Below, one piece after another: positions 2,978 to 45,730 of a stretch of DNA of 64,000 nt. How positions within the stretch are numbered: position 1 is the first letter of the stretch; the number at the start of each line of letters is the position of its first letter. A model generated the notes under the pieces. It saw nothing but the letters and a program-made list of their open reading frames with translations, did no database searches and had not been told where the DNA came from. The translations under genes and the position numbers were made by a program. The DNA is from Microbotryum violaceum. Lineage: Eukaryota. The stretch lies in the NCBI GenBank assembly GCA_001244265.2, contig CDLV01000016.1:434001-498000 (forward strand), read 5' to 3'.

Positions 2978-4562
2978 ATGTCAACCATCAGTCAGTTCAT
3001 ACCCGAAGCATTCAGCTCTGAAGCCTACGAATCGCTCGAAGCCGCGCAGGCCCAGTTCAACAGGGATTTGCTCGAGTTCTTCCCCGAAGTCAAGCCCCCA
3101 CCTGTCGTCGAACCAACCTCACAACTCGATAGCCACGGTCGCGTCGTCTTTGGCTGGGACGTCAGTGGACCCGCCCGAGTCGATGTCGACCCAAAGGCCC
3201 AGGAAGAGATGCAGACCATCGTCGGGTGGGCGATCGAGGCGCTACGTAATGACCAGGAGAGGTGCGACAAGGTCCGCATCCTCTCGCTCGTCGACTATGG
3301 CTGGTTTCAGGAGAAGGAGATGCAAGGCATGGCCGAGATTGTCAAGAAGAGTAAGAACCTTGAGACATTCGCCATTGTGAGTTTTTAAGTTTCCAAAGAG
3401 GCGCCTTTCGCAACATGCTGCCGTATGTTGGTGCTGATTCCCCTTTTTTGGGACACCTTGACACATCGCGACGCGTCGTCGTCACCAGACCCAAGGCGAC
3501 ACCACCCACAACGCGTCCTATAGCCACTACATCGAGCCTTTATGGGAGGCATTGAAGCAAGCACCGCTGCTCGCACAGCTGATTGCCAACAACGGACCGA
3601 TCGTCCCATACAAGTACGAAACGTTTAGCTCGTCCTTGGCCCGCCTCGAATTGGCGAACGCGCAGGTCGACGACACCGACGGCGAGTTACCTGCGGGGCT
3701 CAAGTCGTTGACGCTTGACTACATCTCGGGCTTCAACAAGGCTTGGTTCAACCCTGCGGTGTTCAAAAACCTGGAAACCTTGAGACTGCGCGACGTCAAA
3801 GCCCCTGAGATCGAGATCATCACCTCGGCGATCAAGGATTTTGTCGCGACGGCGACGAAGGGGCCCTTGACACGTCTCTCGTTAGACTTATTTTTTGATT
3901 GGTTCGGGTCGATAACACCCGCGCCCGAGCTGGTTCCGGCGATGAATGAACTCCTTTCCGTTGTTCTAGCAACTTCATTCCCTCACATCGACACGCTCGA
4001 AATGCTCTCGACCCCGACCCCTTCCTCTTCGGCCTATATCAACGACACCTCCAAAGCCGTCTTCCTTCTGCAACCCCAGACCATCAAGAACGCGCTCCAA
4101 GTCATCGAGACCCTCTCGAACCTTGGCGCTACTTATTCCCAGCTGGAAACGCTCGTCCTCTTCTTTGGTCCGGGCGACGTCCTCGTCACGGCGCGAGAAC
4201 ACGAGCCTTTGCTCGCAAAAGTGCTCGAGCTCTTGGCACCGATCAAGTCGCTCAAGAAGCTCGTGATCAACCTCGTCCCTTCGCAAGCCAAGCTGGATGC
4301 TTCGGCGGCGAAGGCTTACTTTGATGCTCTTCCGGCGTTGGAGCACGTGTCGTTCAGAGCCAAGTACGATAACGCCCACGACTGGATGGCATACAAGAAG
4401 GACGGCAAAGCCGAGGGTGTGCCTTTCTGGGAACTGATCTCGGAGGAGGACACTTTGGTAGCGAACGTTGCTGTGGCTGATGTTGCCGCCGAAGAAGCAC
4501 CGAAGACTCCTGAACCGGCCGCAGAGGACAAGACCGTGGGCAGGGCAGGAGACGAACTGTAG
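2978..4562 (+). CDS. Hypothetical protein, possibly LRR/RNI-like (2 exons)
   Basis: ORFs 2978-3388 and 3552-4562 join in frame through intron 3378-3488 (GTGAGT..CAG). Recurrent LxxLxL motifs (LKSLTL, LETLRL, LTRLSL, LKKLVI, LEHVSF). Confidence 0.7.
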
Positions 4563-4675
4563 TTGTGGAAAAGCTAGATTGGAGATTTGTGACACACAAA
4601 TTGCATTCCACCTCGTAGCATTGTACCGACGAGTTGCGACACGGGGGCGGCACTGCTTCCCTACGTCCTCACTTT

Positions 4676-6230
4676 TCATGGCTTGGACTTTTTGAACTTT
4701 TTGCCCTCACGCGAACTCGAACCCTTGTCGGCGCCTGCTTTGCGCTTCTTATCCGCTTTGCTGTTCTCCTTCGACTTCCCCTCTTCTTCGGCATCAGGTG
4801 GAAAAGCACCGACGACTTGCCTCCTGGCTTCTCGTAATACCCGCTTCTCACCGAGTCGAACGGTAATGGCCATTCTCCTTCTCGGGATGAGGTCGGTCTG
4901 GGCGAGCAACGTCTCGTCCTCCTGTGAAAGTGGCCATGGCAAATGAGCATCATTCCCGCCCTGTTAACATGTTGGCGCTCATACAGACTGACCTCTATGC
5001 TCGTCTCGTACTCCTCCATCCGCCTGTCTAAGATCGCGACCGCCCATTTCGCCGAGATCGGATCCAACCTCGGTTTCGGCGGCATATCCTTCCTCTGCAC
5101 CTTTTCAAAGTCAGCCTGGTCAAGCAGTAACGTCCGGATCGTCGAGATGAGCTCTTCAGGGAGTTCAAGGGTCTTATCGAGGACAAAGGTGTCGTCGATA
5201 CCCAGTTCGAGGAGCCATTCGGCACGGGTCGATTGCTCGTCTTCGCTAAGGTCCGACCCCTGGGGACCGCCGACGAGTTCGACGACAAGTCCCAATCCGA
5301 TCTCGACGAGGTCGGCGCCGTTCTCCTCATCGACGTGGCCGTACCTTCTCAACAGGTCCGAGTTGGGTGGGTCGGCGTAGGTGTTGAAGATCTGGGCTCC
5401 AGCCGGTATCGACGCCGTCGACATCATGTTGAGCGTCGAAGGTTCGTAAAACAGTCGAGCGTTGTCACTGCCGAATCGGGCGTTGAGGAGGTCCGCCATG
5501 GGTACCATCGCTACGTCAGCGACATCTTCTCGCTCTTCTTCTTCTTCGTCGTCTGAATCAGAGTTCTCGTCGTCGCCGTCGTGTTTCCGCTTTGGCTTGT
5601 CCTCATCCTCGTCCGCCGACTCGACGTGAAACGAGCGACTGAGTATCCAGCTTCCACACCGGTGGAACAAGTCCAGCGTGTAGTCTTCCTTGTTGCCCAA
5701 GACGCTTGCGTACTCCTCAACGAAGGGCAAGAGTTCCTCCGCATACGCCAGCTCGGCTTCCTCCTTGCCGACCTTGTCCAAGACGGCAGAGCCTTTGAGT
5801 TGTTCAAGCTCAGGATCGGACCAGAACATGAGCGAGTCGAACGAGGTAGGGAGGAGGTCAAAGTAGGGCTTCCATTTCGAGGTGCGGAGGTACTCGTACA
5901 TGAGCGAGAGGATCAGAGGCGTCCATCCCGTGAGTGTCGAGAGCGGCACTTGGGACGAGAGCGACGAGGTCGAGGTCGTGAGCAAGATGGAGCGGGGCAA
6001 CGAGAACAGCAGCGTGTCCGGCTGCAGCGAGAATGGCGAGATCAGATCTGGAACTTAAATGCGCTTATGATAATCGAGACGCGCACCTGAATGTCCTGCA
6101 GCGCCACCGCACCTCGGCCCATACCCTCGAACTGGGTCAGACCGATACTCGGGTTCACCGTCGCTCCATTCGACTTGAGCCAGTCCACAAACGCTTGCTC
6201 TTGAGGTGTACTGACTTGTCCGTTAGACAT
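4676..6230 (-). CDS. SET-domain N-lysine methyltransferase, SETD6/Rkm4/Rubisco-LSMT type
   Basis: FVDWLKSNG..GMGRGAVA, SKWKPYFDLLP, SWILSRSF, MVPMADLLNA, QIFNTYADPPNSDLLRRYGHV, and a substrate-binding C-terminal domain (RRRMAITVRLGEKRVL). Two introns. Confidence 0.9.
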
Positions 6231-7327
6231 GGCTAGACAAAACTTCGTTTGCACGTGAATATGGCCAGGCTTAGTTTGAATGAACAACGATGGCACGAGA
6301 TCCCGGTGGGGGTGCTCCGCTCATGGATCGTGGGCGCCTGCGAAATGAAGGCGCTCGCACGGACCCTGTCCTGCAGGGCGCACCGGCCCGATCTGAGAGT
6401 CATTTCCGTACTTACGACTCTGTAGCGTACCTCAGCTGAGTGGTCGCGTTCATCCGACAGCGTATTTCAGTACCCACCGGACTGAAAAGTACGATCACAT
6501 CTGGCGCGGGCCTCTGTTGATCACACGGTACCTAGGTACGGCCGTCGGCACTGTACACCCGCGCCAGTATGAGTACTGGCAACCACAGTGACCCCTCTTG
6601 GGGGTCCGGTTCGACATTCGCCACTTCTGAGAGCCGGGAAGCCCCGTTGCACTCACGTGAGTACCTGACTATCAGAGAAGCGCCGAGTATTTATCGATTC
6701 GCCCACGTCTCCATGTAGTGAAGCAAGGACGGCAGTTCATCGGCTTACAAAGCGCGGTCCGCGGATCAAAGCTTCATCAAGCACGTGATCTGACTGTGTT
6801 TGTCCGCGAAGTGCACGTGAAGATTGGGCAAAGTCATAGGCTACACCCCAAAGTCAAAGCCAAGTAAGCAGGTCAGATTTGTTGCGTATTGCGTCAGATT
6901 TTGTATTGGCTCCAAGAACACGAAGGTTAGCCCCACTCACAGGGAGAGGAACGGCTCTAGTGCTTAGTAGTGTCTTGACGCGGCACCGGTCTCGATCCGA
7001 GCCTCGGCGAGGGACAGCAGGCTCTAGCAGGCCCTTCCCAAATCGCCGAAACGCTTTCGTTTCACGCCCAATCGTGCCATTCAGGCGCGCGCACGGTGGG
7101 CTCTTCTTGATTACGCGTGCACGACGCAAAGTGGGAGGTTTATTTTTGGGACCACGGCCAGGGGACTACCACCTCGAAGGATCCCGTCATCGTCGGCAAG
7201 TCGTGCCGAATAACTAACTCTTCTTCCTTCTCCGCTCAATTCACCCCTGCCAGAAAGCCCAAAAAACAATCCTTGACTTTCGTTACAACTCATCCCGTAC
7301 GCAATCAACGTCGTGCCCCTCATCATC

Positions 7328-7732
7328 ATGCTTGGCTTCGCAGCAAGCAGCGGCTCGTCGTCGTCCCCGAGCTCATCGTCCTCGGTGCTCCGACTCAAAG
7401 TGAAGCGATCTGAACCTCTACCTACCTACTCGGGCCCCAACCAAAACCCACCTTCGTACGAGCAAGCTACGGGCAAGAAGATCTTACGATCTCCTACACC
7501 GGAAGAAGACGAACATCACCCGCGGCGTCGGTCGTCCCTTTCGCATTGGCTCGACTTGGTCGTTTCGCACTCGTCGTCGTCGTCGTCCGAATCGCAATCG
7601 AGTTCGGCTGGTCCGAGCGTTGGGGCCAGAAGAAGGCGGAGGAGGGCGGCGGCGTGTATTTGGGGACAAGCTAGAGCTAGGGATGAAGCGATGATGTCGG
7701 GTTGGACAAAGGAGATCGCACCAAGGGCTTAG
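7328..7732 (+). CDS. Small Ser-rich hypothetical protein with LPTY and PPSY motifs
   Basis: ATG 7328 follows a pyrimidine-rich leader; 134-aa ORF. No family recognised. Confidence 0.4.
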   Translation: MLGFAASSGSSSSPSSSSSVLRLKVKRSEPLPTYSGPNQNPPSYEQATGKKILRSPTPEEDEHHPRRRSSLSHWLDLVVSHSSSSSSESQSSSAGPSVGARRRRRRAAACIWGQARARDEAMMSGWTKEIAPRA

Positions 7733-8216
7733 ATGGGCCGGAGGATCGTAGCCTCGGCGGTCGTCCCGGGATGAGCTGCGCCTCGAGGGTTTGTCGATAG
7801 GCTCGCGCGGAGCCTCGCGTTGGGAGCGGACTTGTACCTAGCCGTACTACAGTATCGTCTTTAGAAGTATCTTTAACAAACCCTTGCTTGTAGCTTTTGG
7901 TATGTGCGGTCTAGTGGTGTGTGAATGCACGGCGTTCCAACGATCGGGCATGCTCGCGCGTGCGTGCCTCCGAATCTCACGTGACGAGTTCGCCGGCTTT
8001 GTGTCCGAACGCCGCTGGTGCTAATGAGCGCGGTTGGCGTTATGGGATCTGGACTCCGATTGACTCGAGAACTCTTCAGAGTGATCAGCTACGCACTAGT
8101 GCCGGTTCACTCATGGCTTAGATGCATTTGCCCTGGACGGGCGGGGGTAACATGATCTCGGACCTCCGGGGTCCCGACTGAGCCCGATTCAATGCAAACC
8201 TCGCTCCGTTCGTTCC

Positions 8217-8984
8217 TCAGGTCACTTCCGACTTTCTGCCGTCCCAAAACCCCTTCCCATAAGAGACGCAGATTTCGGACCCCTTCTCGACGCCGTTGGG
8301 ACCACTCCACACGCTCATCCTTACGCCTTGCATCGTCGTCCCATCGGCGGCTTTGCACTCCCTGGATTCGAACACGGCGTTCGGTCGGTCTAATACACCT
8401 CGATAGTCGTTGATGAAGCGCGCTTCGTTACCGGCTTTGGTGGCGTCAATCCCGATCGTTTCGTAGCGTACTAGCGAGGAAGCAGTCGTCTCGGATGAGG
8501 CGTCTTCAACGATAGGGATTCGGGCGAGACAGAGATCATAATCCGAAGTCGGATCGACGTCCTGTTCGGGATGGACGACGCCTAGATAATCGCGGATCCA
8601 TGTCCGAGGTGGGATCTTGGCATTTGCGAAAATGCCGAATTGACCTTTTGCTGGGTGGGTAGCATCGATGATGCGCTTGATGCTCAGTTGAGGTGGGGCG
8701 TTTGGGATGGGGACTTGGGGGGAGCAGTAGAGGCGACGATGGGCGGCGGAGAGGTGTCTCGAGGGAAGCGGTGCAGTGAGGAATTGCACAGTGGTGGGGA
8801 AATGACTTGGGGGTTGATGCGAGGATTTGCCTTGGCCGGGAGTGTTGGTGATCGGGCTACCAGAATTGGAATTGGTTCGACCCTGTAGGGGGACAGGAGT
8901 AAGGGTGACCGGTGATCGATCAGCTTGGCTCACACACTGGTGGACAAGGCCTACATCGAGGCAGACCTTGGATGCCGAAACCAT
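8217..8984 (-). CDS. Small SET-domain protein
   Basis: HPAKGQFGIFA, IGIDATKAGNEARFINDYRG and EICVSYGKGFW SET motifs. The 5' end may contain an in-frame intron ending at about 8884. Confidence 0.85.
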   Translation of the reverse strand: MVSASKVCLDVGLVHQCVSQADRSPVTLTPVPLQGRTNSNSGSPITNTPGQGKSSHQPPSHFPTTVQFLTAPLPSRHLSAAHRRLYCSPQVPIPNAPPQLSIKRIIDATHPAKGQFGIFANAKIPPRTWIRDYLGVVHPEQDVDPTSDYDLCLARIPIVEDASSETTASSLVRYETIGIDATKAGNEARFINDYRGVLDRPNAVFESRECKAADGTTMQGVRMSVWSGPNGVEKGSEICVSYGKGFWDGRKSEVT

Positions 8985-9201
8985 CCTGTGAATTTATGTG
9001 TGGGCCATATCCGCGCACAGTCGGGATCGCGGCAGCCACCGTCGACGGGATTCAAGGGAGGAGGCGAAGTTCTAAGTGCAGGACGGGAGGAACTGGGGTT
9101 GTCGCTGTATTTTAGTATGTTTACTAATGGGGGCCTTTACGACGAGGGGAAATCGGACGCGCGCCCGCCGCCCACGGATGGGCGCAAGCTATGAGCGCAA
9201 G

Positions 9202-9243
9202 CTAATAAGCTCAACTAAAGGGGAGAGGCGTCGAGCTTATTAG
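9202..9243. repeat. 42-bp hairpin with 14-bp terminal inverted repeats, flanked by 7-bp direct repeats
   Basis: CTAATAAGCTCAAC (9202-9215) pairs with GTCGAGCTTATTAG (9230-9243) at 13/14 positions. GCGCAAG lies at 9195-9201 and 9244-9250. Confidence 0.55.
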
Positions 9244-9799
9244 GCGCAAGTTGTTTTGTGGGAGAGCTGGTCGAGTTCGAATTCCAGTACGGTTAATCCT
9301 CGGACTCTGTTCTACCCAAACAATGAGAAAACAAAGAAGAAGACCATCGTCGGAGTCGCTGTGCAACGCGGCCTGATACGTGCACGTGAGAAAAAAACCA
9401 AGAAAGCAGACACAGCGAATCGCCACACATCCCCACTTCCTCTCCATCATCCCCATCCTCGAGTCTGACCTATCCCGCCGCATTGCCAGTTGAAGCAGCT
9501 GTTGACAGCGGGTGACCACGTTAGCAGCAGCTCGCAACTTTACGTCGAGCAGACGGAACTACTAGTAGGCAGTCACACTTGGTGTGCATAAAACTCACTT
9601 TTTGTGGACAAAGTTGTTGATTCATCATTGATACCGGTCATGACGTCTTGCACTGCCGACTGGCGGACAAGGAAACCCCCTGTAACGCCAAATCCCGAGG
9701 TGGAGGCAAAGGTGGAGGTGGATGACGTAAGCAAGAGGTGGACGGTGCGGTGAAGGCGAGGTTGGCGTTCAAGATCAAGGTCAAAAACGAGCAGCATGA

Positions 9800-10055
9800 A
9801 ATGCGGTAAATTCAAAGGTGGAGGTACAATGGGGAGGTACAATGGGGAGAAACAGACGTAGAGATGAAGGCAAAGGATGAAGTTGGAGGTGATTCGAGGT
9901 GGAAGCGAATGTGATGGTGAAGGGTGAAGACGATAATCGGATGTAGAGGTGAAGATGGTGATGGTGATGGTGAAGATGGTATGATGTGGTGGGGATGGTG
10001 TGATGTGAAGGTAGATGAAGATGAACGGGCATGTGAAGGTGAAGGCGAGAGCAGG
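9800..10055 (+). repeat. Purine-rich degenerate low-complexity tract (GATGGT/GAAGGT units)
   Basis: Repeated GATGGT/GAAGAT/GAAGGT units and a tandem GGAGGTACAATGG duplication at about 9820-9847. Confidence 0.6.
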
Positions 10056-10931
10056 GTGAGCCCAAGTCCGTCGTACGAGGTCGGGTCCGGCCGATGATGC
10101 CGCAGCTGCGAGCCGGCCACGAGCGGGACTGACCCGATACAATGATAACCAACAACCTCTCCCAAACTTTTTACCTCGCAAGACGACCAGGACTGCCGTG
10201 GGCCCCTCTTCGATCAAGAGCGAGATCGGAGGCTGGTGACGATCCGAGTCAAGACCAGAGGAGGGCAGTGCCCAAGTCAGCGACGGTGGTACATACTTGC
10301 AACAAGTGGGAGGGGTGAACTCACGGTGGCTGATGGTACACTACTGCCGACTTCCACCACCTACCGCCTCGGTGCTGCGTCGATGCGCTAGTCGGTTTCG
10401 GCCCAGTGGTGGAGGAGCCATGTGAGAGGTACTCATCAACGAAGAAGAAGGAAGGAGAGAGAGAGAGGTGAGAGGGGGGGGGGCGCTTTTATACTCGCCC
10501 TGAGGCCAGACTTGGCGCTTATCAAGCGACTCGAGGTCAAGCTCTCGCTTCATCCGTGCCAATGACGCTAGCCCGCGCCGCCACCCCTCGGCATCGCAGC
10601 TCCCTCGGCGCTGCGGTCTTCCGAAAAAGGAGACCCCTCCGTCACCCGAGGTCACCAAGTCGACGTGAGTTGTAGCAGCAACAATTGACAAAGCAGTGTT
10701 CTTGATGGTTGCAAAATGAAACTCGTATTTTAACGCATCTGCTCGTACTACTCTGGGTCCGAACGACCCATTACTCGTGTTGCCCGTCCATGGCTCGGAG
10801 TCATTTTGAGGGGTCAGAAGATCGAGCTGATGAGCCAGGAGCGCGCTCACGCGCAACCTTTTCACGTCTGACGCGACGAACATCTCGGGTACTATCCTCT
10901 CACCCCCTCATCTTTCAATCTCTCACCGACC

Positions 10932-12793
10932 ATAACGATCGCACACGCACACAAACTGCTCGACCAGGAACTCCCCACCGTTCCGGAAGCCCTTTTGGGT
11001 CAGCATCAGGATGTGCGACAGGCGTTGGTTTCGCTGGTAGGCACCGTCGATGGCGAGTCCGAACCCACCGTCGCTGCTGGTTCAACGCTCCACCCACCGA
11101 TGAACACCCTCTCTCTGCCCCTTCCCCCTCCCCCCCCACCACACACACATCCGGCTGTCTACTAGTCGTGATTCTCGACGGCTCGACGCTATTCTCCTCC
11201 GAGTGGTTCTCAGCCGCTCGGAGCGGCACCTCGCGACAAAAACAAACGCAACGGTTCGTCGGCTCAGTTCTTGCAGAGGCGGATCGCATCGTCGCGGCGA
11301 CGGCCGGACGAATCCACCTCGTGATCGTCTTCGACCACGCTTCGGCTCGTCCGGCCTTGAAGGCCCGGCGTACCCACACGTCGAGAGACAACGGGAACGG
11401 CGTCCGGCGCTCGCCCCAAGTCTCTCCCGACAATTTCCAAAGGAGAAGCTCCGACTAGCACACCGACCCCATGGCCGAATGGCTCACCGATTTCGGCGGT
11501 CAAGGCGAGCCGACCTTAGCGGGACACGTCTTCGACATGTCCTCGGAGGTCACCGTCATCATCTCGGCGCACGAAGCCGACCCCCTGATTGCGGCAAGCA
11601 CCCGAGTCGGGGTCATCGGCGGCGTACGCGTTCAAGGCGACCGTACCGCCCTCGCCAGCAAAGACTCGGACTTCTTCATGATGATCGGAAGTGAGCGTGC
11701 GAGATACCGATTAATTCCCTCCGTCAAGCATCGGGTGGTTCGAGTCATCGACCTCGAGATCCTCGAACGTCAGGGAAAGTTCCCCGGTGCGGAAGGAAGG
11801 TTCGTTGCGGGGTTGATGCTGGGATGTGACTACCTTCCAACCGGTATCGAAGGTTACGGGCCGACCAAGCTCGAAAAGTTGGATCCGTCAGTCTTTCAAC
11901 TCGCCACTTGGAGCCAAGGTTACGAACACGCCACAGCGGTCTTGCATCGAGTCGGCACTAAACTTGACGTTCGTACCATCTGCGATGCGATTACTCCCAT
12001 CCGCAACCTGTACGACTTCTATCGGTGCGACTTGGTCTCGAAGCTACCGAGCGCCCCGCGAGTCATCGAACATTCCCCCCGGGTCCTCTTCCCCGACACT
12101 TCGTTCGATGGGGGTTCGGACGAACACCTGCGTCGCCAGTCCACGCCCGCGCTGCGGCCGTTCCGTGCAACCCCGCTCCTGCAAGGGCGCCAAGGCCACG
12201 GATTCGAGCTGGGTCCCCTCCAGCCTCTCGCATTGATTCGCGATCGAAAGACACGACACGAGGCCGCGGCCGTTCGGCGACTCGAGGCCGTGCAGCCCGG
12301 GAGATGTGCGTCGACCCGCCAGATTGCGACCAAGGGCGCCGTCGGGGCGGATGGCTTTCACCTTTTGACCCCCGAGTGCCCGATCGTCGAGTTCGCATCG
12401 GAAGGCTCCAATAAGGCGAAGAAGAAGAAGATAACGACCCCAGCCCCGCCCAGGGTCAAGGCAATGTCTGCGAAACAGGGGCGGTGGGCACACGCGATCG
12501 CCTCGGGCCAATCTGCTACTACGTCTACCGGCGACTCGGACGGCTCAAAGGGCGCCGGGGCTCTGGCCCAGGTGTACAGGATGTTCACGATGTCGGGTGT
12601 ACTGGAAGATCTCGTGAGGGAGGTGGATGGTGGAGGCCCTGGCCTTGTGGAAGATTCCAAGAAGCGGCGGCGAAAGGCCAAACAGGCGAGGCGCCGGCAC
12701 AAGAAGGGTCGGAAGGCGACAAATCCGTCGACGAGCTCGGGAACGTCGCAGAAGTCGATCGAGACGGCCAGCGATGCCATGTCGATCGGTTGA
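10932..12793 (+). pseudogene. Intronless FEN1/XPG/EXO1-superfamily (PIN + H3TH) 5'-nuclease-like gene, disrupted
   Basis: Motifs in the expected order: VILDGS, VIVFD..RPALKA, AHEADPLIA, SKDSDFF, LMLGCDYLPTGIEGYGP. Basic tail KKRRRKAK. In-frame TAG at 11456-11458; probable ATG>ATA at 10932 and a frameshift near the C8 run at 11130-11137. Confidence 0.75.
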
Positions 12794-13291
12794 GCTCGAC
12801 GACCTGTCTTGCTCTTGGCTTACTCCTGGCGTACTCCCGGTGGCGCTCGTTCTCGCTTTCTTCCGCGTTCCGATCCCCTCCCTCCCCTGATGACACTCTA
12901 ATCGCACATCGAAGTTCTTTTCTGGATAGCCTCGTCGCCTCATGATTCGATCCCTAGGCACGTTTTCTTCGTCTTTTTCACGTACGCTTTGCACAAGTTA
13001 TAGGGTGCTATTCAGAACACAGATCATCACATCATCATATTGTGTGACTATTGCCTCGAGACTATAGCGCACCCCTCAGCAGGTGGGAGTAGCGAGTAGG
13101 CGGGGGAGCGGGGCAAAGAGGAGTGAAAAAGGGGGGGTTGACGCGGAGTCTGGCCGGGGAAGAGGGTTAAAGGGTTTTGGACCTGCGATCGCAGGGCACT
13201 ACTTCTTTCGAGTCAAAGTGAGAACTATCGTACGAGTTTGAGCTCTTAAGGCGATGGTTTACACTGCCTCGATACAAGGGCAGGGTGAAGA

Positions 13292-13293
<2 letters not shown>

Positions 13294-13329
<36 letters not shown>
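13294..13329. repeat. (GA)n microsatellite
   Basis: About 18 GA units. Confidence 0.95.
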
Positions 13330-13336
<7 letters not shown>

Positions 13337-14792
13337 AGAGACCAAAACCGGACTGCTAGCCATGAGAACCGTCGCCATGATGCTTCCCCGTAAGCAAAGA
13401 GTACGATGAACCCCCGCGAACCATGTACGTTTCATATCAACACCCATGAACATACCATCAAACTCCCCCTCAACCGATACATGGCCCCACAACGCTCACA
13501 TCTGATGACAAAACCCGGTCACCTGACCTTTCCAAGCGGCTTTTCCTCGAGAACTGTTCTGCTAGTTGGGCACTGCATACGATGTTGACGAATCAAGTCT
13601 CGGTACCTATCGAATTTCTGGCCGTGCGCCATAGCCACAGGGACAAGACGTGGTAACTGAGGCTCGCAGCCTGGCTACCGTTCCACGCACCCACGGGTCA
13701 CGGCACCAAGTTTTGTCATCAATGCCATCATCTTCCGCATTGAAGTCCCACTCCTTAAGCCTGAATGCACCGTTGTATTTCGCGTCGATAGAGTGATGAC
13801 TCAAATCGTCGCTCGAATGATCCCTCATGTCAAAGTCAACTCCTTCGTTCGTGTTGTCGTCCGTCTCATCAATCGTGTCACCGGGGCCGCTGCCGGCAAA
13901 TGAAGCCAAATTCCGCAGGTCACCCGCTGTCGTTCGCTGAAAAAGTTTAGCGTCGTCGGTACACCAAAGCCGAAGCTCCACGCACCCCTCCATCTGTTGT
14001 TCGCGCACGTCCCGGATGCACCGCCACAAGTAATCAAGGCTCAAGATCGATGGCGATGGAGGAGGGTTCGGTCGGCGTTTTGCACGCCGCCTCGTCAGGA
14101 TGCCGTGGATATTGTGGGATCCGGTCGCATCCGCCATTTGAGCTTGTCAAGGCCAATAGAAGTCGTAGCGGCAGCAAGTTTTGGACTTGGTCGCCTCGAC
14201 AACGATCATTTCCGGCGGCCAAGACTCGGAGAGGAGGGAGGCTAAAGATGGCTTACGGGAGGGAGATGAAGAGGAGGTGGTGTTGTACGGGCCTTCAGTT
14301 TTGCACCGCCAAGACTCGGAAAATGACAAGCAATGGTGGGATCAGTAGGGCAGGATTTGGATGGAAGACCGGGCCCGATGTGCGGATGAAGCGGTGAAGG
14401 GGAATGAAGAGAGAACAGCGGTTTGAACGACCGGGACGTTTGAGGGGAGTTTGCTTCTTGACTTCAGGTAGACCACTTTCAGGACCAATTTTCTGTTTCC
14501 ACTTGTCTCTCGCTTTTTGCGTGTTTCACGTCTCGTTCGGCATCGTCTCCAGTCTCCGACCTCAGCGTTTCGTTCTCGAACTCTGTCTCTCTCGTGTCTC
14601 TCGCAAGTCGGGTGTCTTAAAAGCTCGTAGTCATACCTTAGCCCTCATGTTATCATACCATCTTTGATTGATAACATCTTTGATTGCTAACGCCAGCAGC
14701 GTAGCCGGAGGATTTTACAAAAGCCTCGCTCTTCGGGGACAAGCCTAGAGCGGCTCCTTTTCTCATTCTCATACGTGGCAGGACCTCATCCT

Positions 14793-14816
14793 CTTCTTCT
14801 TCTTCTTCTTCTTCTT
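14793..14816. repeat. (CTT)8 microsatellite
   Basis: Direct reading. Confidence 0.9.
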
Positions 14817-14949
14817 CCCCCCCTCCTTTGGTCCCGTGGTCGCCCCGTTCTCGATGATCGTGTCGGCCGCCTTCTTCTTCCTCCTCGTGAATTTCTTACG
14901 CTTGGTCTTGGTCTGTCTTTCTTGTCTTTCCCATCTAGGGACGCAAGAT

Positions 14950-15735
14950 TAGCTTGTGGTAGTGGCAGTGCGTGTCGCAGGGAGTCCATGCTTGAAACGA
15001 TGCCGATGGGTGCATTGCGATGGAGGAAGGTTCGAAGCTTGAAAGTGGGGGTGCCACTGGCCAATGTGTGCCGAGGCCAAGGGCCGATTAGCGTAGGCGA
15101 GTAGCAAGTGCACTACTTGGCCGCTACTAGTATGTTGCCTCCGGGCGCGGGCGGTGGGGGAGGGATGGTATACCATTCTGTACCAACGGTTTCCTGGGCC
15201 AAATTTCCAAAAGCTGTCTTAACGCGTTACGATGTGCATAAAATACAATCTGTCGTTCTTGACCGATAGGCTGAAAGCAGGTGTTGTACAATGTGTAGCC
15301 GGACAAGCAGGTCAAGGTCGTGGTGCTGTTGCAGGTCACGGCGTTCGGATCGGTGCAAGGCAGGCATTGTTTGGCTGGAGGGTGCCCGAGCGGACGATAC
15401 AATCGAGATCAGTATTGAAACTATGTGACAAGATTGGGTGGTAGAGCGATGAATCGCAATGACTCACCATCCGGGCTGAGGCAAGTACCAGGAGTCTTGC
15501 TGCAGTCCACGGCTGCGCACCTGCTCAGTGGAGGTCATAGATAGGGGCTCAAAGTCAGCCCAATCGCCTGAATTGGCCCCAGTACCAAGGCTGAGCGGCA
15601 TGATAGATTCTCGCCCGCCATCTCGAGGGGCTTCGACGCGCGAAAGCCATTCTTCCCAAGCGAGCATAACGCCATCAACGCATCTGCCCCCATGCAAATC
15701 AATGCGCCGCCAAAGTGGCAGTGATTTGAAACCAA
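14950..15735 (-). pseudogene. Remnant of a cysteine-rich repeat (furin/growth-factor-receptor-like) protein gene
   Basis: Spliced reading CAAVDCSKTPGTCLSPD|AKQCLPCTDPNAVTCNSTTTLTCLSGYTLYNTC through a GTGAGT..CAG intron (about 15375-15467). In-frame TGA at 15535-15537 just upstream; no clean start found. Confidence 0.45.
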
Positions 15736-16222
15736 CGTTCTTCATGTCTTGGCCCAGCTTTTGGGTCATGCAGTACAGACCCTGCACCCATTTCCGAACA
15801 GGCGGCTTTCAGTACCGAGCGTCGCATCGCATTTTTTTTTGTGTAACTGGGCTCATAAATTACGATCCTTCGGGTTGGCTAGAATCGCTACAAAAAGAGC
15901 TAAAGAGGTAATAAGCAGATCAAGCTCGTCACGTCGGACCGTCCTGACTGATTATCCGGATCGACTCGAGCACGTCCCACTCGCTTTGATGATCTCCCTC
16001 TCTTCCTTGCTTCCGCTACACCGGCTCAGCTTCATTCACTTCTACTGGCCTCCCGTCTGGTGTAATACCTACACCGTCTCCACCGGCGCTTCTCGAAGAA
16101 AACGTTGATCGTTTCTCTCCTCTTCGACCTCTCCCGACTCGTCGCTACGGTAAAGACTGACCGACCAGCGACCACGTACGGCCACCTTCTCAATCTTCAC
16201 CTACCACGAACCCACCATCACT

Positions 16223-17970
16223 ATGTCGAGAATGAACACCCGAGCTGTGCTCGCCCTTGTACTCGTCGCATCGCTTCAAGCACTCGCTTCGCCCATCACC
16301 GGCATCACCTTCGCCGCCGGACCCGAGCAAGCCTTGGCGGTCCGTGCGCCTGCACCCGCCGCTGCAGCCACCGCGCGATCCCGTGTTCAACAACTTGGTG
16401 CAGATCGATATGTACAACTCGCCACTCTTCACACCCGCGACGATGAACATCTCTTGGAGGCCCGACTTCTCAATCACATGATGATCGAGCCAGGTTTGGC
16501 TATCCGAGCGGCTGACGAATCCGAGAGCGAGGACACCGAGGAGGCTGAGACAGATGACGAAGCCGAGGTCGAGGAGACGGTTGAGGAGGTCATCGAGCGC
16601 CGCGGCAATTCACGGGTGTTTGCTACGTCGGCTCGCTCCATTCTGGCCGGAATGAGACCGTAAGCTCATTTGATTCCAGCAGCGAAGCTACCGCAGGTTC
16701 CTTAGACTAACGTCGTGGAGTCCCCGTTGCTACTCTCTCTCAGCCCTCACGTCATTCCCAATCCGAAAGATCCTGACTTTGGCAAGCTTACGGCCACGCC
16801 CGTGCGCACAACCACCACGACTGCGTCCGCCAAGTCGACAGCGACCACAACCCCAAGAGCAACGACCGCTCCATCGACGACGATGACAACGACGACGACG
16901 ACCACCACCACCACGACGTCCACACGGGATGCTGCTGCCGCGTCGATTCCGACCGGGCTCGGTTGCTTCCCCAGCAACGTCAAGTCGATCCCGACCGGTG
17001 TGAACTACACCGCCACTGATCTCGCTTCCAGCTGGTGGTGCGCCGACTCGAGTGAATACGCCTTCATAGGCTTCTCTTATTCGGTCGATGAATGCCAGTC
17101 CCCTTCGACGTTGCTCGCCAGCTTTACGCGCATGCGCAAGCAATTCGGCGCTCGCGACGTTCGTCTCTATGGCGCGTGCGACGCGACCTGGTTCAATGAC
17201 GCTCTCGTCGATGCTGCTGCTTCGGCGAACCTCGATGTCTACCACTTGATTTGGTTCGGCTTCGATGGTGACGACCAACGGAAGAGCCGCTACAGCGCTT
17301 TTGTCAAGACGATGCGCACGAACCCCAAGGCCCCGTTCGTGTTTAAGAACGTTGCCATCGGGTCCGAGCCGCTGTACGACGGGGTACTTTCGGCTACCAA
17401 CTTGGTGACCGAGATATTCAGTATGAAGAGTAAGATGGCGCCGTATGGAACAAAGGCCACCTTCTCCGAGATGCCATACGGGCTGCAAATCAACAACGGC
17501 GCACCGTCTACCATGGCCGCGGCCGACTTCGTCGAAGGCAACGTCCTCCCCTTCTTCGACTCGCAGGCCACGGCCGGAACAAACGCCTGGGGGGTCGTTT
17601 CCTGGTCACTCAGCTACTTTGCTTCGCTTGCACCGGGAAAGATCATTCGGTAAGGTCAATTCATGCCTTCGTTGTTTGCGATCGGCCCTAGCTGAGTCAC
17701 CGTCCCGGTACTCTTTGACTGCGCAGCATGACCCAAACCGGCTGGCCGTCCGATCAGTCGGTGTGGAAGGCCAACACCCCAACGGCCGTTTCCAGCATCT
17801 CGAGCCAGGCATCCTACTACGCCTTACTCGACTCCAAGTGCTCCTGGTTCAAGGCAAACGGGGGCATCGGGTGGTTCGCGCACATCTACTCCGATGACTC
17901 ACTCCCGGGGTGGGGCTTGCTCAACAACGGCAATCTCAAGTTCCCCTTCGCGCCCAAGTCTTCGTGCTAG
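16223..17970 (+). CDS. Secreted glycoside hydrolase family 17-like protein (3 exons), nucleophile position Gln
   Basis: Signal peptide (AVLALVLVASLQALA), acidic pro-region, Thr-rich linker, and GH17 barrel motifs VRLYGACD, AIGSEPLY, NVLPFF, MTQTGWPS, GIGWFAH. Introns 16660-16743 and about 17650-17726. Confidence 0.85.
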
Positions 17971-18156
17971 AGCATTCTATTATCTGTACTGGTCGTAGTT
18001 GTTGGGTAGTGGCGTAGCCTTCGATGTATTCCAGATATCACCCAATCTGAAGGTATCGGCTTCTATTCTGGGGCTTAGAAAACTCAGATATATCCCATTT
18101 GGTCATGAAGGTGTCCCGGCAGAAAATCACGAGACTGCCTCGACTTCCGATATAAT

Positions 18157-18880
18157 TTACGTGCACGCGAAGGACGAGGCCTTGGTAGGGTCACCGTTCG
18201 TGTAGTAGCCAAATTTGGGCCAGCGGCACATGCGGCGTTCGAAGGCCACACCAAGTCGCTTGTCGCCGTTGACGTAGTTGACACCGACAAGTGAATCGGG
18301 CGCCTGGTTCTTCTCGACCCATGCGATGAGCGCGAGGATCATATCGTCCTTGGCGGTGAAGGTCGCGCTCTGAAGGTTCCCCCCAAGGGAGATGTCACTT
18401 TGGCTGGCCTGACCGAGGTTGAACGCACTGTTGCCGCCCCCGCAGTGCGACATGCCCGGGATCGCGAAAAGACGGTACGATTCGTCGACGTTGCCGAGCT
18501 TGGTCTTGACGCGATCATAGTACAGGAGCGACGAGCGCGCCGGGATGAGGCTATCGGCGAGATCAACATAGGTGATGAGCTTGCCACGACTGAGGAATTT
18601 ACTGATGTCAGGGTCGATGGCGTTCGTCTGTCCGGGGTCCATGTCGTCAGCGATCTTGAGGAGCTTCTCGAACTCGGCTTCCGAGTTGACCGTGAGGGGT
18701 TGCGGGCTCGTCTTGTTTAAGACTTGGTAGCTGGGTGATGGTCGGAGGCACTAGATCCGATCAGAGAGCGTGGAAGTACAAGGACAGGTGTAAGGTCAGG
18801 CTCACGTGAAATAATCGGGTGAAGGGCCATAGGGGACGCCGGGAGGGCCGTCGGCTCCGGCGAGGACACCAGGGTAATAA
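18157..18880 (-). pseudogene. Tannase/feruloyl esterase family gene, 3' half only
   Basis: GVPYGPSPDYF|YQVLN, GKLITYVDLADSLIP, YRLFAIPGMSHCGGG, ALIAWVEKNQAPD, RRMCRWP..GDPTKASSFAC. The upstream part, including the catalytic Ser motif, is absent and Copia sequence begins at about 18881. Confidence 0.85.
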
Positions 18881-21800
18881 GTTAACGACAATGTCACCTT
18901 CTCGTACCCGTTCTCGAACGAAATGCTCCGTCAGGCGTAGGTGCTTAGTCCGATCGTGGTACACCGGGTTCTTTGTGAGAGCTATCGCGCCTTGATTGTC
19001 GCCTTTCAGCTCGATCGGCCCACAAATCGTGATTCCCAATTCCGCGAGCAAATTTCGCAAGAACTGACACTCTCGAGACGCATGAGTAAGGCCGATGTAT
19101 TCCGCTTCCGTTGACGACGTCGCCGCTCGGCTCTGGATCCGAGAACTCCAAGAAATTGGCCCGTCAGCCAGCTTGAAGACATGCCCCATTGTAGATCGGG
19201 ATGTGTTGATGCAGGAACCCCAGTCTGAATCCGAGTATCCCACGTATCCAACCAACGAATCACGTTTCGCCTTGTAGACAATGCCGAGTTCGAGAGTTCC
19301 CTTGATGTAGCGTAGGATCTTCAGAACTGCCGCCGAATGGTCGCTGCCCGCCTTGTTCGTGAATCTTGCCAAGTACGACACCGGGTATGCAAGATCAGGC
19401 CGAGTTGCAACGACGGCGTACATCAAAGATCCAATCGCCGACCTGTACTGCGTCTGTAACAAGGGATCCGGAGTGTCGCAGGGTTTGAGCTGAAGACCCG
19501 GTTGCATTGGTAATACACTCTTGTTAGCATCCGCCATGCCGAATCTTGCAAGTACATCGAGCAAATACTGTCGCTGCGACAACGCAATCCCGCCCGCTTG
19601 ACGAATGAGCTGGACGCCAAGGATGTACTCTGCATTGCCGAGACGTTTGACTCCGTACAATCGATCCAATTCGTCGAGCACGCGATCAATTTCGGATAAG
19701 TCGGGACCGACGAACAGCAAGTCATCGACGTAAACCGCGATGTAATAATCGTCTTTGCCAAGTGTTCGATGATAGACACACTCTTCGCTCCGAAGACGAT
19801 TGTAACCAAGCTTGACGAGGGTCTTATGGATCGTCTCGTTCCATACCCGGCCGGCCTGCTTGAGACCGTAAATCGAGCGGTGCAACTTGAGACAGACATT
19901 GTCGGGCAGTCGGATTCCCTCCGGTACGCGCTTGTACAATTCCTCTTCAAGTTCGCCATGCAAATAGGCCTTGTCAATGTCCGCTTGGATGATGTGGTAA
20001 CCCCGGGCCGCCGCCAACGCGATGAGAGTACGAATCGAGACAAACTTCGCTGTCGGTGCGAACGTCTCTTTGAAGTCAATTCCCGGCCGTTTCGTGAAGC
20101 CTCGTGCAACAAGTCGAGCTTTGTACGAAGTCGGCCGACCATCCTTGTCCCGTTTCGTTCGGAAAACGAACTTGGACCCGAGAACCTTGGCGCCGGCGGG
20201 AAGCTCGTCTCGTTTCATAATCGTAAAGACTGAGTAATCATCACGCAATGACTCGAACTCATCGATTGCACCTTGCGCCCATTCGTGAGACTTGTGGTGG
20301 GCCATGGCTGCCTTCCAAGTCGTGGGATCACTAGTCGGCAAAACAAACGGACCGAGGAAGATCATCGGAAAGCCCCGTGGCCGGAGCTTCTTACGTTGTT
20401 CGGTATTCGCCGTTTGCCAGGCTCGACATCCGAAGACCCGTAAGTGATGAACGTAAGCAGGTTTCCCGGTCCATTCCCGAAATGGCACCTTGCCACCAAG
20501 GGCAGAGTGTGGGGAACGATTCTTCACATACACGTATCTAGCCACGGCTTCGGCCCAAAACATCGTGGGCAGACCGGATTCATACAGCATCGTTCGAGCT
20601 GCTTCCGAAATCGAGCGCCTGGCCCTTTCGGCGACACCGTTTTGCTCGGCGTGCTGGGGATCGTGAGTTGTCGCGACAAACCCGTGTCGTCCAACCATTG
20701 CTTGAACTCCGTCGAAAGGAACTCGCCACCGCGGTCCGAACGGACAACTTTCAAAGTGTGCCCTGACGACAGCTCGACCCGTAGTTTCCACGTTTTGAAC
20801 CTTTCAAAGGAGTCCGACTTTCGCGGCAGCGTCAACACCCACATGTACCGCGTACAATCGTCGACGATAACTAGCGCGTAGCGATGATTTGCAAGTGACA
20901 GCTCGCCGTCGAAGGACAAAAGATCGATGTGGACGAGATCGGGGGGTTTTCCGGCTCGCGATTCGGAGTTTAGGAACGGCTTGTGCGTAGCTTTGCCGGC
21001 CAGACACAATTCGCATTTCAAGTCACTGCGAGACTTCATGTTCAAACCTGTCACAGCGTCAGACTTGGACAGCTGGTGAAGGGAACGGCAGTGCAGATGA
21101 GCGAAACGTCCGTGCCAGGTGTGGAGAGGCACTGCTGTCAGAGCTGTGGCTGACGCACAATCAAGGGGTGCACTTCGAGCGCGAACCAACTTGGGGTCCA
21201 GACGGTACAACCCCGAATTGAGCTTCTGTCCCGTGAGTAGGATGTCGCCATTTCCCACCACCGTGAATCGCCCGTTTTGAATGGTGATCTTGCGACTATC
21301 ACGATCGGCTCGACGCCCGGCGAAGAGATTGGCGGGGGTACTAGGGACGAAGACGCTGTTGACCAAGTTGTACCTCTTGCCGTTCTTGTCTTCGACGCAG
21401 GCCGTGCCTACTCCCATGATGGTCTTTCCCTCACCATTGATGCCCTTTAACGAAGACGGAGCTGTCGCCTTCAGGTCGGCGAACGCGGCAGGATCATTGA
21501 TGACATGATGAGTCGCTGCCGTGTCGTAGAGGATCATTTCTCGAGAGTGCTTCTTTGGTAATTGCGTGAAGAACGCGCCAACAGAATCGATCCCCAGAAT
21601 GTCTTCAACCGAACGGAGCGCCAAATTCGCCATCGGTTCCTCGCCTTTGGTCGTCTTGCGTCGTGAAGACTTCTTCTTCTTCGGCTTGGAACAGTTTTTG
21701 TTGAAGTGGGTGTCTTCACCGCAGTTCCAGCAGGGGCCGGGTGGCTTCGGTTGGGCACCAGTCGTAGCCAACAACGCCGTCGCAGCGTTCCCAGTATCTT

Positions 21801-34285: not shown

Positions 34286-35629
34286 ATGTCCAAGCCATCA
34301 TCCCTTTCACTGTCTCCATTCAGCACGCCCTCGCCCGGCTTGGCCCACATCAACCGGGTGATCGCCACCACCTCGGGCCAGGACAAGGTGTTCATGCTCT
34401 ATGCTTGTCAGTGGCCGACCCGCCTCCACAGAGAATGCCGCTCAATGCCCATCTGCTAACTGGAACCATGTTTTTTCACAGACTCGTCCCATGTGATCAT
34501 GCACCTGTTGCGCTCCAAGCGTCTTGCAACCAGATCGCGACTCGAGCTCGCCAACCGCATGGACAAGCTGCGAGACGTCATCTCAGATGCCAGAACATTG
34601 TCAGTCAATGCAACCACGACAGCTACGACGGTAATCCAGATGGAGGCTGACCACCGTATCTTCCCCTCAGATATCGTCTCTTTGGACTGTTCCCAATCAT
34701 CCAGTGGGCTCAAGCTCTGAACGATCCCGCGAAAAGGCCCGCCGATGGCCAGTTGGCGCTCATCAACAAATTGCAAGCCTGGTCCATGTTGTTCTACTAC
34801 CCTCTTGAGCACTACTGTAGGTCGTCTCTCCGCGCGCTGTTCTCTGTACGCCGCAGGCGCCCGTAGGGTCGAGCTGGCCCCACCCAGTCTCGAAGCGGTG
34901 CCCCGCATTTCGCCTTCTGGCTTGCACCGCCGCCGGAGCCTGGAGTCGCTATCGGGCAGGTTGTGATGCTGTAGAGCTGACCTCGTGCTTCATTCCGTCC
35001 CCTCTCCCTCCGTCTATCAGATTACCTAGCTGGCAAGGGTGTGTTTGATTGCCCTCCCGCAAGGATCGGCACGTAAGTCCCTCCTCAGAACGTTCCTCGG
35101 GTCGTAAGGATCCTCCGATGTCACTCTGGACAGGCGGAAAAGACGAGCTCGGTACTGAAAATCGCTCTTGTCTAATTTCCAGTATCGCGATGTGGGCATG
35201 CCGCTTCTGGGCCTCTTACGTCGTCCTCCAAGTGCTTCACATCCGACGCGAGTACCAGCTCCTAAACCAGTCGCGTCGCAAGCTCGTGAATGCGCAACGC
35301 GAGTCCCGCATCGCTGGTGGTTCGAACGAGAACAGTACGGAAGTGGAAGAAATCAAGAGGATCAAGAACAAGAGTCATGCGCTCAAGATGGACACGTTGG
35401 TCCAGATTGGATACTTGCCCTTGACGGCGCATTGGTCAGTCTCGCTCCCGCGTGGATCGAGCTGTTGCAGGCTCGGTGAATGTTGAGCACTGTACTGAAT
35501 GAAGGATCGCTCCTTTCTTCGCATAGGTCGATTCCTGGAGGCATCTTGCCGGACAATCTTTGGGTCGGCATGTTTGGCACGCTCGCCGCTGCGACAGGTC
35601 TGAAGACCTTGTGGAGGAACACGGCTTGA
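34286..35629 (+). CDS. PEX11: Peroxin-11 family protein
   Basis: TTSGQDKVFML, ISDARTL|YRLFGLFPIIQW, LQAWSMLFYYPLEH, WACRFWASYV, YLPLTAHW|S; 6 exons; TGA 35627-35629. Confidence 0.85.
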
Positions 35630-35869
35630 GAGAGGTGCGTAGGTTGACTTAGCTGTACTTGTAGCTCTTGGGGCTGCCTTCCTTCCTACTGGGATCAGGT
35701 CTTCTGTAAACGAGGCGCTTCTGTGCACGATTGTCCCGCGGCTCAACGACATTGCAAGCAGCTATAGTCCTCGACGCATCCATGGTCAGCGAAAGCTTGG
35801 GTCAAGCAGACCTGGCACAGAAAGTCATCCACTCGAACTGAATGAGCTGTACAACTTTTGGGCTATTTC

Positions 35870-36335
35870 GTGGACCCGTTCCAACCCCACCACCCGCCAA
35901 GCCTTGGTCCATTGCCGTCGATGGGGCCTCACGGTCCCTCCAACCATGCGATCACCGCTAGCAGCCATCCTCAGTTCCGACTACTCTGCGCGTTTGATTG
36001 CACGTTCTTCACACGTCGTCCCTCCTCTAGTTCTTGTCCATCACATCCCTCGTCGTCACGCCCTGCTGCTTGCCCTTGTCGATTTCTTTGCGAATCTCGT
36101 CGCGTGATTCGAACAATCGCTCTTCCGACTCGTCGGTCGCTTGTCCCGTCGTCTCCTGCCGGTAGACACGCAGTACACGCACCGGCATCAGCGTCAGCTA
36201 CCGTATTCAGTGCATGGGGAACGACCCGGAGCCAAGAGCTCTCACTTTGATCGTCTTGGTCGCGGCATCCTTGACTTGGTTGAGCGTGTCACCGATAAAG
36301 TGAAGGCGCTTGGCGATCGGCCCCTCGACTTCGGC
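35870..36335 (+). repeat. 466-bp inverted duplication, copy 1 (partner at 57051-57516)
   Basis: Reverse complement matches 57051-57516; overlapping ORF translations are identical in both copies. Confidence 0.95.
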
Positions 36336-36586
36336 CGGTTGCGACTACAACCGTGTGGCGGCAAGAGAGAGCAAAATTAATTCTGACGTAGACAGTTCAC
36401 CATGGTGGTGAGACGTACCCCTCCAATCTTTTCGGGCTCGTCCGCGGCGCGTGTAATCGACGACGTTGCGAGAGCCGAAGTGGCGCCCCAAATTCGACTC
36501 GAACTCCGCGAGGACGATAACGAAGTGACGGTGACGCCGGCAGCGCTTCGACGCAGCTGAAGGGTAAAGCGGTTCATAGACAGCAT
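36027..36586 (-). CDS. 131-aa probable mitochondrial hydrophilic (LEA-like) protein, 3 exons
   Basis: Exons 36586-36419, 36344-36246 and 36155-36027 with introns GTACGT..TAG (74 nt) and GTGAGA..CAG (90 nt), all phase 0. Reading: MLSMNRFTLQLRRSAAG...EKIGG|SQPAEVEG...ATKTIK|ETTGQA...MDKN*. Confidence 0.7.
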
Positions 36587-37857
36587 CGGATGGTCGTGAA
36601 ACAAATTGTGATCGTGTGCACAGGTTTGCCGCAACAAGTGGGTGGCTCGAAACTGGCGATTGACCGCGTGCTGGCATTGGCTGAAGCGCTAGGCTTGGAA
36701 GCGATGACGTCGATCCGCGATCGATTGCTCGCGCTCCCTGCGCGAAGGAGCATCGAGCGTCTCGTGTCGGCCAAGTAATACGACGAGCAGTCTCCGGCTG
36801 AACGGCTTTTGTGCCGATCTCTATTGATCAATATGAATAGTCAATATATAATAAATGGCTTTGATTTGGGCTTGGGGGCGATTTTCCCCACCACACGGCC
36901 CCGCGAAGAAACCGCCAGCGACCCAACTTCAAACTAACCGGCGCAGATTGCGCCGCCGCGAGCGACGCCCAAAGGGGGGGAAACAGGGGCGATTGACCGG
37001 GTGCGCGTCGTTCTTGATCACCGACAGACTCGGATTTGAGCCGAGAGAACCGACTTGAAGGCGAAGGCAGTCGTAGTCAAAAGGCCCCGCGATGCAGCCG
37101 TCGCGTAAGAAGACGTGGAAGTTTCTTGGCCGCTGCCTCACGAATCGTCCGAAGTATGATTCCTCGGAGTAAATGGTTCTCTGGGAAGGTGATGTGATGG
37201 AGGCTGAAGCCGAAACCCGCGCGGATTTCGGTCGGGATCAAAGCGACTCTTGCTCGAAAGAAGTGTTGCCACGATGTACGCGAGGGCGATTCATGGCTGA
37301 TTTCCATCGATCAAAGTTGAGGAGGTAACGACATCGGTCAACGCCGCATGTAAAAGTGTGAGGGAAAGACGAGCGGAGAGCTTATCCAAGGCCGATCTAG
37401 GGGCTCTCGCCGACTCCGAGTCGGAAGAGGCATCTGTAACCATATGAACAGGAAAAGTATGGTCCCGTTGAGAAGGGTCCGTAGTAGATATGTCGAAGAA
37501 GAATGTCTATGTAATGCCCAGCTAAGGCCTCGGCAGGTGACACTGGAAGCGTGGAAAAGGTAGGAAATGAAAAATACGGGGCCAAAGAGGGAGCTTTGAG
37601 GAGCGACACATTCAGGGCCGGAGCTGGCCATGTGGAAGGTGTAAAGCCAAATGTGGCCGTATGATAGAAGTACAGCGAATATGGCCGTACGATAGAAGTA
37701 AAGCCGCGAACAATTGAAAATCGTAGGTGGTGTCGAGCGAAAGCCCTTGTCGTCAGAGCGGCGAAAGCTAAAGTCTAGGTACTCACGAAAGGTGTCCGGA
37801 GGCTGGTAACGCTGAAACAGCACTCCTTGAGGAAACAAAAGACGGTCGAACGGGGGA

Positions 37858-45371: not shown

Positions 45372-45730
<359 letters not shown>

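Follow-up and report, generated by a model that had tools for sequence, protein, structure and literature searches.

A pseudogenised FEN1/XPG-like nuclease gene in Microbotryum violaceum, probably part of a Fanzor-carrying mobile element

The Fanzors known to us act alone, with a guide RNA that comes from just behind the gene, and homing by cutting and repair is the general proposal for TnpB and Fanzor nucleases alike. Among other mobile DNAs, the nuclease of AcademX transposons carries an XPG domain. Several described systems come close to the locus considered here. Fanzor1 elements without a transposase of their own include Spu-1 and its ghost loci (PMC10432273, in the portions of that source used here), and Fanzor elements that keep one end only, namely MCi-2 and CRe-1/2/3, are recorded in the cited portions of PMC3627910, which also give the signature of Fanzor1 and TnpB proteins as D-X(125-275)-[TS][TS]-C4 zinc finger-RD. 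AcademX is a transposon lineage with an extra nuclease (PMC10045372, as far as the cited part goes), and the FEN-like pattern consists of acidic residues after S1, S2 and S4 and before H4/H5, together with an H3TH (PMC5499597, cited part). No FEN1/XPG-Fanzor pairing was found in the main texts of the literature checked, to which supplements might add such loci, and the term 'XPG' is absent from the main texts of PMC3627910, PMC10711439 and PMC10530073, the supplements of which might differ.

The present locus lies in a stretch of 64,000 nucleotides of M. violaceum DNA (GenBank assembly GCA_001244265.2, contig CDLV01000016.1, positions 434,001 to 498,000, forward strand), here called the window. 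The gene at 10932..12793 of this window is a pseudogene that probably once encoded the 5' nuclease of a mobile element harboured by anther-smut fungi (Microbotryum), one that carries a Fanzor and has no transposase. The element is likely to be laid out as an end at 9277, an outward-pointing minus-strand RNA, a common promoter region, a one-intron nuclease gene, a Fanzor-like gene and a vague far end, a layout assembled from partial, decayed copies, with all parts intact at no single locus. A preliminary description of the same letters had recognized the nuclease; the element end, the suggested movement with downstream cargo and the spliced minus-strand RNA are new here.

The nuclease gene and its relatives

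Four runs were examined as contigs. Three of them (X2, X3 and X12, which stem from three studies) are taken as RNA solely because splice joints are present in them; the fourth, X1, has no joints and an even depth. The gene comprises the following parts, where P0002 denotes an intact protein of M. saponariae (563 aa, 88% identity over the window's long ORF).

10932..11052, plus strand: first exon of the FEN1/XPG-like gene, with ATA in place of the start codon in the window copy (paralogue alignment and P0002)
11053..11165, plus strand: intron of the nuclease gene; GC donor in the window copy (alignment, P0002, contigs)
11166..12793, plus strand: exon 2, with the PIN core, an H3TH-like GCDY motif and a premature TAG at 11456-11458
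Tail of exon 2, plus strand: about 250 basic residues, of low confidence in the fold model
12794..13034, plus strand: probable 3' UTR; contigs reach 13008 (X3) and 13034 (X12)

The gene had initially been taken as intronless, about 620 codons long and disturbed by a frame change near a run of eight C residues; the frame change is actually the intron, and the coding length is 582 codons. Of five paralogues aligned at the intron donor, three have GTGAGT and two share GCGAGT with the window; the acceptor at 11165 is CTACTAG, and the C-rich tract between the two differs in length among paralogues by non-multiples of three. P0002 is joined exactly at this site, between VGAVD and VVILDG, and contigs of X3 and X12, two of the four runs, skip the 113 nt. 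Together, the aligned donor and acceptor, the joint in P0002 and the skipping contigs thus establish a gene with a single intron. X12 has in addition an unspliced contig that matches the window exactly throughout the intron, which suggests that splicing from the window's GC donor is inefficient or fails altogether.

The ATA at 10932 had been ascribed to a lost ATG opening MTIAHAHKLL, and rightly so, since ATG stands there in six of the seven covering paralogues (in an alignment with eight) and P0002 starts MTIAHAHKLL. The TAG at 11456 was also correctly placed, but its supposed origin from TGG gives way to CGG, the codon in all three colinear paralogues. By reason of these two lesions the window copy is, as judged from its sequence, a dead gene, a pseudogene. 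The suggestion of an internally deleted longer ORF is not supported. The intact P0002 stops at the same DAMSIG as the window ORF, so the PIN gene of this subfamily stands alone, with a distinct Fanzor-like gene behind it that the window copy has lost. The Fanzor-like C-terminus once hypothesized for the window ORF is accordingly absent from that ORF but has its counterpart in the element's partner gene.

A single frame, from 11168 to the stop at 12791-12793 and interrupted at 11456, holds the acidic motifs LDG, VFD, EAD, DSD and GCDY..GIEGYG in the order first described, with the basic clusters behind them; this frame and the alignments supply all six acidic PIN-core residues and the H2TH/H3TH aspartate. 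A profile of six pieces reached yeast Rad2 at E=2e-5, and the Atlas placed the XPG_I/XPG_N clusters at 0.92. The fold model is weak (pLDDT 45; best Z 5.8): EXO1, GEN1, XPG and FEN1 align to it at Z 5.2-5.7, and the alignment of EXO1 (Z 5.7, rmsd 5.0 over 202 residues) is weak on its own. Foldseek returned nothing for this model at E<=0.001, and a Pfam scan did not recognise the protein. Motif pattern, Rad2 match, Atlas score and structural alignments agree with the originally proposed membership of the FEN1/XPG/EXO1/GEN1 superfamily and support a PIN/FEN-like fold, for which a 5'-flap or 5'-exonuclease activity is putative. A viral origin, also raised at the outset, gained no backing beyond the poxvirus G5 cluster, an Atlas look-alike tied at 0.92 with the eukaryotic XPG clusters.

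A profile search of 1.84 billion proteins recovered 19 relatives, ten of which were looked up: nine come from four Microbotryum species and one, P0016 (1721 aa), from Rhodotorula pacifica. In P0016 a PIN domain (N-terminal, E 1.3e-8) and a Fanzor-like domain (PF07282, C-terminal, E 7.3e-5, below the Pfam cut-off) are seen fused in one predicted protein. P0016 as query in the Microbotryum genome gave PIN matches only, in two of five candidates. Word-index searches of longer proteins with the window ORF and with the ORF on contig C8 (below) gave no match, and a search with the C-terminal part of P0016 gave only P0016 itself, all of them weak negatives.

One conserved end, a Fanzor-like partner and downstream blocks

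The check for copy number proposed in the preliminary description finds the gene to be multi-copy, with 25 nuclease protein matches in its own genome at about 16 loci, in three subfamilies. DNA similarity among the copies starts abruptly at 9277: 22 of 35 non-self matches begin at 9270-9289, none of the 35 reaches further left, and the flanks are unrelated. Copy number, this sharp common end and the location of housekeeping XPG_I genes elsewhere bear out the early view of a selfish-element nuclease.

9277..9402, minus strand: conserved element terminus, a long irregular hairpin on the minus strand (match starts, flanks, folding)

On the plus strand the end begins TCGA(A/C)ATTCCAGTACGG. In many copies just the first 120-190 nt are retained, and inner parts of the element follow directly. 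The alignment of copies with their flanks, likewise proposed earlier, defined the end at 9277 but yielded no target-site duplication; nor was a TIR or a sure right end found for the element copies. In a search for an inverted partner end, the 1-mismatch pattern gave 30 matches against 29 for a control, and the exact matches were known ends. No transposase was seen among the ORFs listed for the copies, and Pfam detected no transposase domain in P0016 or the scanned pieces of L048, the copy on C8. An inverted pair at 9567-9578 and 13042-13056 had been considered as the boundary of a 3.5-kb unit. Its left arm, however, falls in intron 3 of the minus-strand RNA (9499-9598), 290 bp inward of the true end, and no other copy covers the right arm; the same 5.3 kb contains 153 inverted pairs of at least 11 nt, and the pair was rejected as ends.

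Two other candidates near copies of the end were set aside. A 2.55-kb segment in L060 and L051, tried as the element's transposase, is a separate, abundant, non-autonomous Helitron-like repeat (L060:3497-6055, which is G000 C4:2034489-2037059, and L051:6560-9107) with 80 genome matches, a hairpin, a CTGG end and presumably a Rep-like fragment. The 2-kb inverted arms in L090, tried as TIRs, are a local inverted duplication of 2.1 kb, 99-100% identical and containing a diverged element end (L090:2429-4523 / 6781-8873; G000 C4:2347-2354 kb). To the left of the element end the window carries a host SET-domain gene (8217-8993, minus strand) and a Rubisco-LSMT-like gene (4669-6054, minus strand).

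The element in the window is cut off somewhere past the probable 3' UTR (12794..13034), and the Fanzor-like gene is missing from it; beyond 12767 there is no paralogue coverage except for a 72% match at 13135-13307. On contig C3, a PIN gene of subfamily B has a second decayed gene downstream. At L048, the equivalent of 9277 to about 10860 of the window is joined directly to a Fanzor-like gene, the PIN gene being deleted. The ORF that follows the subfamily-B PIN gene is a homologue of this C8 gene (E 3.5e-17; 50% over 40 aa), so that the end is linked to the Fanzor-like gene on C8 and a PIN paralogue to the front of that gene on C3. The C8 gene presents IGIDLG, FVGEG and VDEYNTSSVC..C, then C..C..HRD, which is the RuvC/zinc-finger order, with a probable intron between the last two; P0016 presents VGVDPG ... 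EAWTTKSC..C, C..C..HRD. Both proteins follow the Fanzor1/TnpB signature quoted above. PF07282 matches the C8 gene at E=0.038, as in P0016 below the Pfam cut-off, the Atlas offers RuvC at only 0.81, and sequence searches of solved structures with P0016, the C8 piece and their alignment returned no Fanzor. Statistical support for the Fanzor identity of the partner, which is suggested by motif order and sub-threshold Pfam scores, is thin.

With its introns the partner gene extends over about 3.7 kb, and a second decayed Fanzor-like copy is found on C5. The C8 and C5 copies cease to match some 530 nt downstream of the stop, at CATCAAATG(T/A)CA, which resembles the left end read outward (GGAATGTCGA) and, because it rests on two copies, is a candidate far end; the last 129 nt before it fold no better than shuffles. 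A PF07282 match at C4:2713690 and the window segment 15282-15597 were both rejected as Fanzor remnants.

Further downstream, the window contains a block that is also present elsewhere.

16039..18750, no strand assigned: glycoside-hydrolase-like gene and tannase fragment, both also present behind this element end at two further loci on C14

The tannase fragment is PF07519 by Pfam scan, and we take the gene to be glycoside-hydrolase-like and probably secreted. The block recurs at 95-97% identity at C14:183868-186597 and 199524-201396, each time behind an element end, and the window, L045 and L046 share the common end and the block 16039-17893/18750 with three different left flanks. It is possible that 16039-18750 is element cargo. 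The common end and the downstream blocks fit one-ended movement with cargo, part of which could be mimicked by duplications on C14. L047 (C10) and L059 (C5) have another junction in common, from a PIN exon into a protein-kinase-like piece (L047:about 3700-4347, minus strand; L059:5381-5740). As an X12 contig spans this junction at depth 221, the PIN-kinase chimera seems to be transcribed. After the cut-off element, the window also holds four multi-copy repeats of other families, overlapping or adjacent to one another (13338-14480, 13704-15231, 15282-15597 and 15831-15914) and, at 18761-20803 on the minus strand, a Copia-type RT fragment (RVT_2) with an internal deletion relative to many 93-98% copies.

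A spliced minus-strand RNA at the conserved end

The region between the nuclease gene and the terminus gives rise to a minus-strand RNA (9300-10460), which has three introns, is directed outward and stops close to the terminus.

10325..10493, minus strand: RNA exon 1; 31-codon ORF from 10437, TATAAAA at 10493-10487, X3 cover, presumed start site
10233..10324, minus strand: RNA intron 1; joint in X3 only (depth 524)
10134..10232, minus strand: RNA exon 2, from contig joints
9680..10133, minus strand: RNA intron 2 of 454 nt, with purine-rich repeats on the plus strand; joint in X2, X3 and X12
9599..9679, minus strand: RNA exon 3; its ATG and 23-codon frame are lost in diverged copies
9499..9598, minus strand: RNA intron 3, GTGAGT..CAG, the joint being CT..AC on the plus strand
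9300..9498, minus strand: last RNA exon, apparently non-coding, with a presumed 3' end; joint 9498/9599 in X2, X3 and X12

The intron 3 joint has a depth of about 25,000 in X3 and X12 and of 652 in X2, and depth drops to 0.25 (X3) and 0.36 (X12) in the bin 9151-9301. Summed contig depth is 22,000-81,000 (X3) and 35,000-54,000 (X12) over the RNA exons, and about 40 (X3) and 175-500 (X12) over the nuclease, figures that only hint at very high RNA abundance because contig depth sums paralogues and is a poor measure of expression. As read from its sequence, the spliced RNA has ATG-started ORFs of just 31 and 23 codons. The shorter is broken by indels or by loss of the ATG in diverged copies, and the longer lies outside the alignment; in its aligned part the RNA apparently has no conserved ORF and would be non-coding. 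At 9599-9700 (exon 3 and the start of the next intron) blocks of sequence are kept across the 67-80% copies and the frame is not.

Competing explanations and comparison with known systems

It is an even question whether the end RNA has nothing to do with the Fanzor, being instead an lncRNA of the host or of the element, or an mRNA for a short peptide driven by the common promoter, with the end acting as a DNA signal only. In X3 and X12 the high-depth contigs fall short of the element end by 25 nt or more. Known omega RNAs sit downstream of the Fanzor ORF (PMC10432273, cited portions), and the transcribed end here is the left one; a covariance model of it found 12 matches in 41 sources, all of them left ends, and nothing at the far end or at loci of subfamilies B and C. 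An Rfam scan of the RNA gave no match beyond one at chance level, the RNAalifold consensus is weak (-3.1 kcal/mol) and has a different structure, and covariation, with 82.5% of cells paired, is not significant, its values being reached by 25/500 and 56/500 shuffles. Against an unrelated RNA, the transcript is directed towards the terminus, the best-conserved part of the element is its last 125 nt, which fold as a long hairpin whose z-score is better on the minus strand in eight of ten copies, the 23-codon ORF is not conserved, and one X2 contig extends 15 nt beyond L059's copy of the end, which agrees in length with the SpuFz1 guide (14-15 nt in the cited part of PMC10432273). A guide-RNA precursor is our leading specific guess for the end RNA, a tentative and on balance unlikely one.

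A second question concerns the mobilising machinery. The element could be a non-autonomous Helitron or Helitron2-like element in which 9277 is the rolling-circle origin end, the PIN, Fanzor and RNA genes are cargo and RepHel acts in trans, a proposal that is compatible with the preferred reading, would name its missing enzyme and in our estimate has a minor share of the probability. In its favour, the first letters of the end are TC, copies are constant at one end and variable at the other, pieces lying downstream have been captured, Helitron-like repeats are abundant in the genome (the 80 matches above), and Fanzor1-bearing Helitron2 elements keeping one end are known (PMC3627910, cited portions). 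However, of the Helitron1 hallmarks (TC after A; CTRR before T), A precedes TC in only 5 of 16 clear ends and no CTRR far end was found; on the flank examined TTTT occurs at L068 only, the far end being uncertain (two copies); no asymmetric inverted repeat was found, the end is unlike that of the local Helitron family, and the copies with listed ORFs contain no RepHel. A fragment of an AcademX DNA transposon, a lineage with a nuclease of its own and TSDs of 3-4 bp (PMC10045372, cited part), is largely refuted and retains a very slight probability: there is no DDE transposase in the copies' listed ORFs or in P0016 (Pfam), the search for an inverted partner end stayed at its control level (30 against 29), and the partner gene resembles TnpB. 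If the gene were a decayed paralogue of housekeeping FEN1, EXO1, GEN1 or XPG, it would share the fold and the catalytic residues, but PF00867, which detects housekeeping XPG_I, has six matches at five other loci and none at the element copies, Pfam is silent on the protein itself, and the gene is multi-copy, mostly broken and has its 19 relatives in 1.84 billion proteins. Copy number and range refute this origin, to which we attach practically no credence.

The preferred reading, a Fanzor-carrying element without a transposase, has its own weak points: no locus has all parts intact, the shared C14 blocks could be segmental duplications, the Fanzor call is sub-threshold with no solved-structure match and an Atlas RuvC score of 0.81, and the fold model is poor. 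In such an element the conserved end would be the sole end required in cis, for a one-ended, strand-transfer move driven by an enzyme in trans, and copies would therefore lose or swap downstream parts. The Fanzor would cut empty sites, the PIN nuclease would trim 5' flaps or resect the cut ends, and repair would then copy the element back (homing). A bolder and doubtful reading would be a eukaryotic RNA-guided element of new layout, in which a Fanzor-like nuclease has a FEN1-like 5' nuclease, as partner or fused domain, to process its cuts, the guide arises not behind the Fanzor gene but as a multi-intron, polymerase-II-type transcript that leaves a divergent promoter and runs out through the other end, and about two dozen nuclease-less copies form a highly expressed guide library. 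The window's own nuclease copy is dead. A lineage with a 5'-flap/exonuclease of its own, encoded as a fusion in Rhodotorula and by a separate gene in Microbotryum, hints at end processing as an inbuilt step through which repair could be steered. Such a pairing is relevant to the retention of Fanzors by eukaryotic transposons and to editing tools. The spliced end RNA, were it a guide, would represent a new way of making omega RNA.

Set beside described systems, the element resembles AcademX as a DNA transposon with a nuclease, there of XPG type, beside a mobilising enzyme, and differs in that no Academ transposase, TIRs or 3-4 bp TSDs were found. With non-autonomous Helitron2 elements it shares the T/TC start, a hairpin near the end, one-ended copies and capture of neighbouring DNA, but no TTTT target, asymmetric inverted repeats or RepHel were found here. 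The nuclease has the acidic pattern and the H3TH GCDY motif of FEN1, EXO1, GEN1 and XPG/Rad2 (PMC5499597, cited part), whereas it falls below Pfam thresholds, is multi-copy, has a basic tail of low confidence, is confined to Microbotryomycetes in the searches run and is paired or fused with a Fanzor-like domain. The Fanzor1 elements Spu-1, MCi-2 and CRe-1/2/3, within the portions of the sources cited, share with it the TnpB-type RuvC and zinc-finger order, introns, many one-ended copies without a Fanzor ORF and the lack of a transposase inside. In contrast to those elements, no TIR or TSD was found here, the partner gene of about 3.7 kb bears introns and has a fused relative of 1721 aa, a FEN1/XPG-like gene, not described for Fanzor1 in those portions, is present, and it is the end upstream of the genes that is conserved and transcribed, on the opposite strand, into a spliced RNA.
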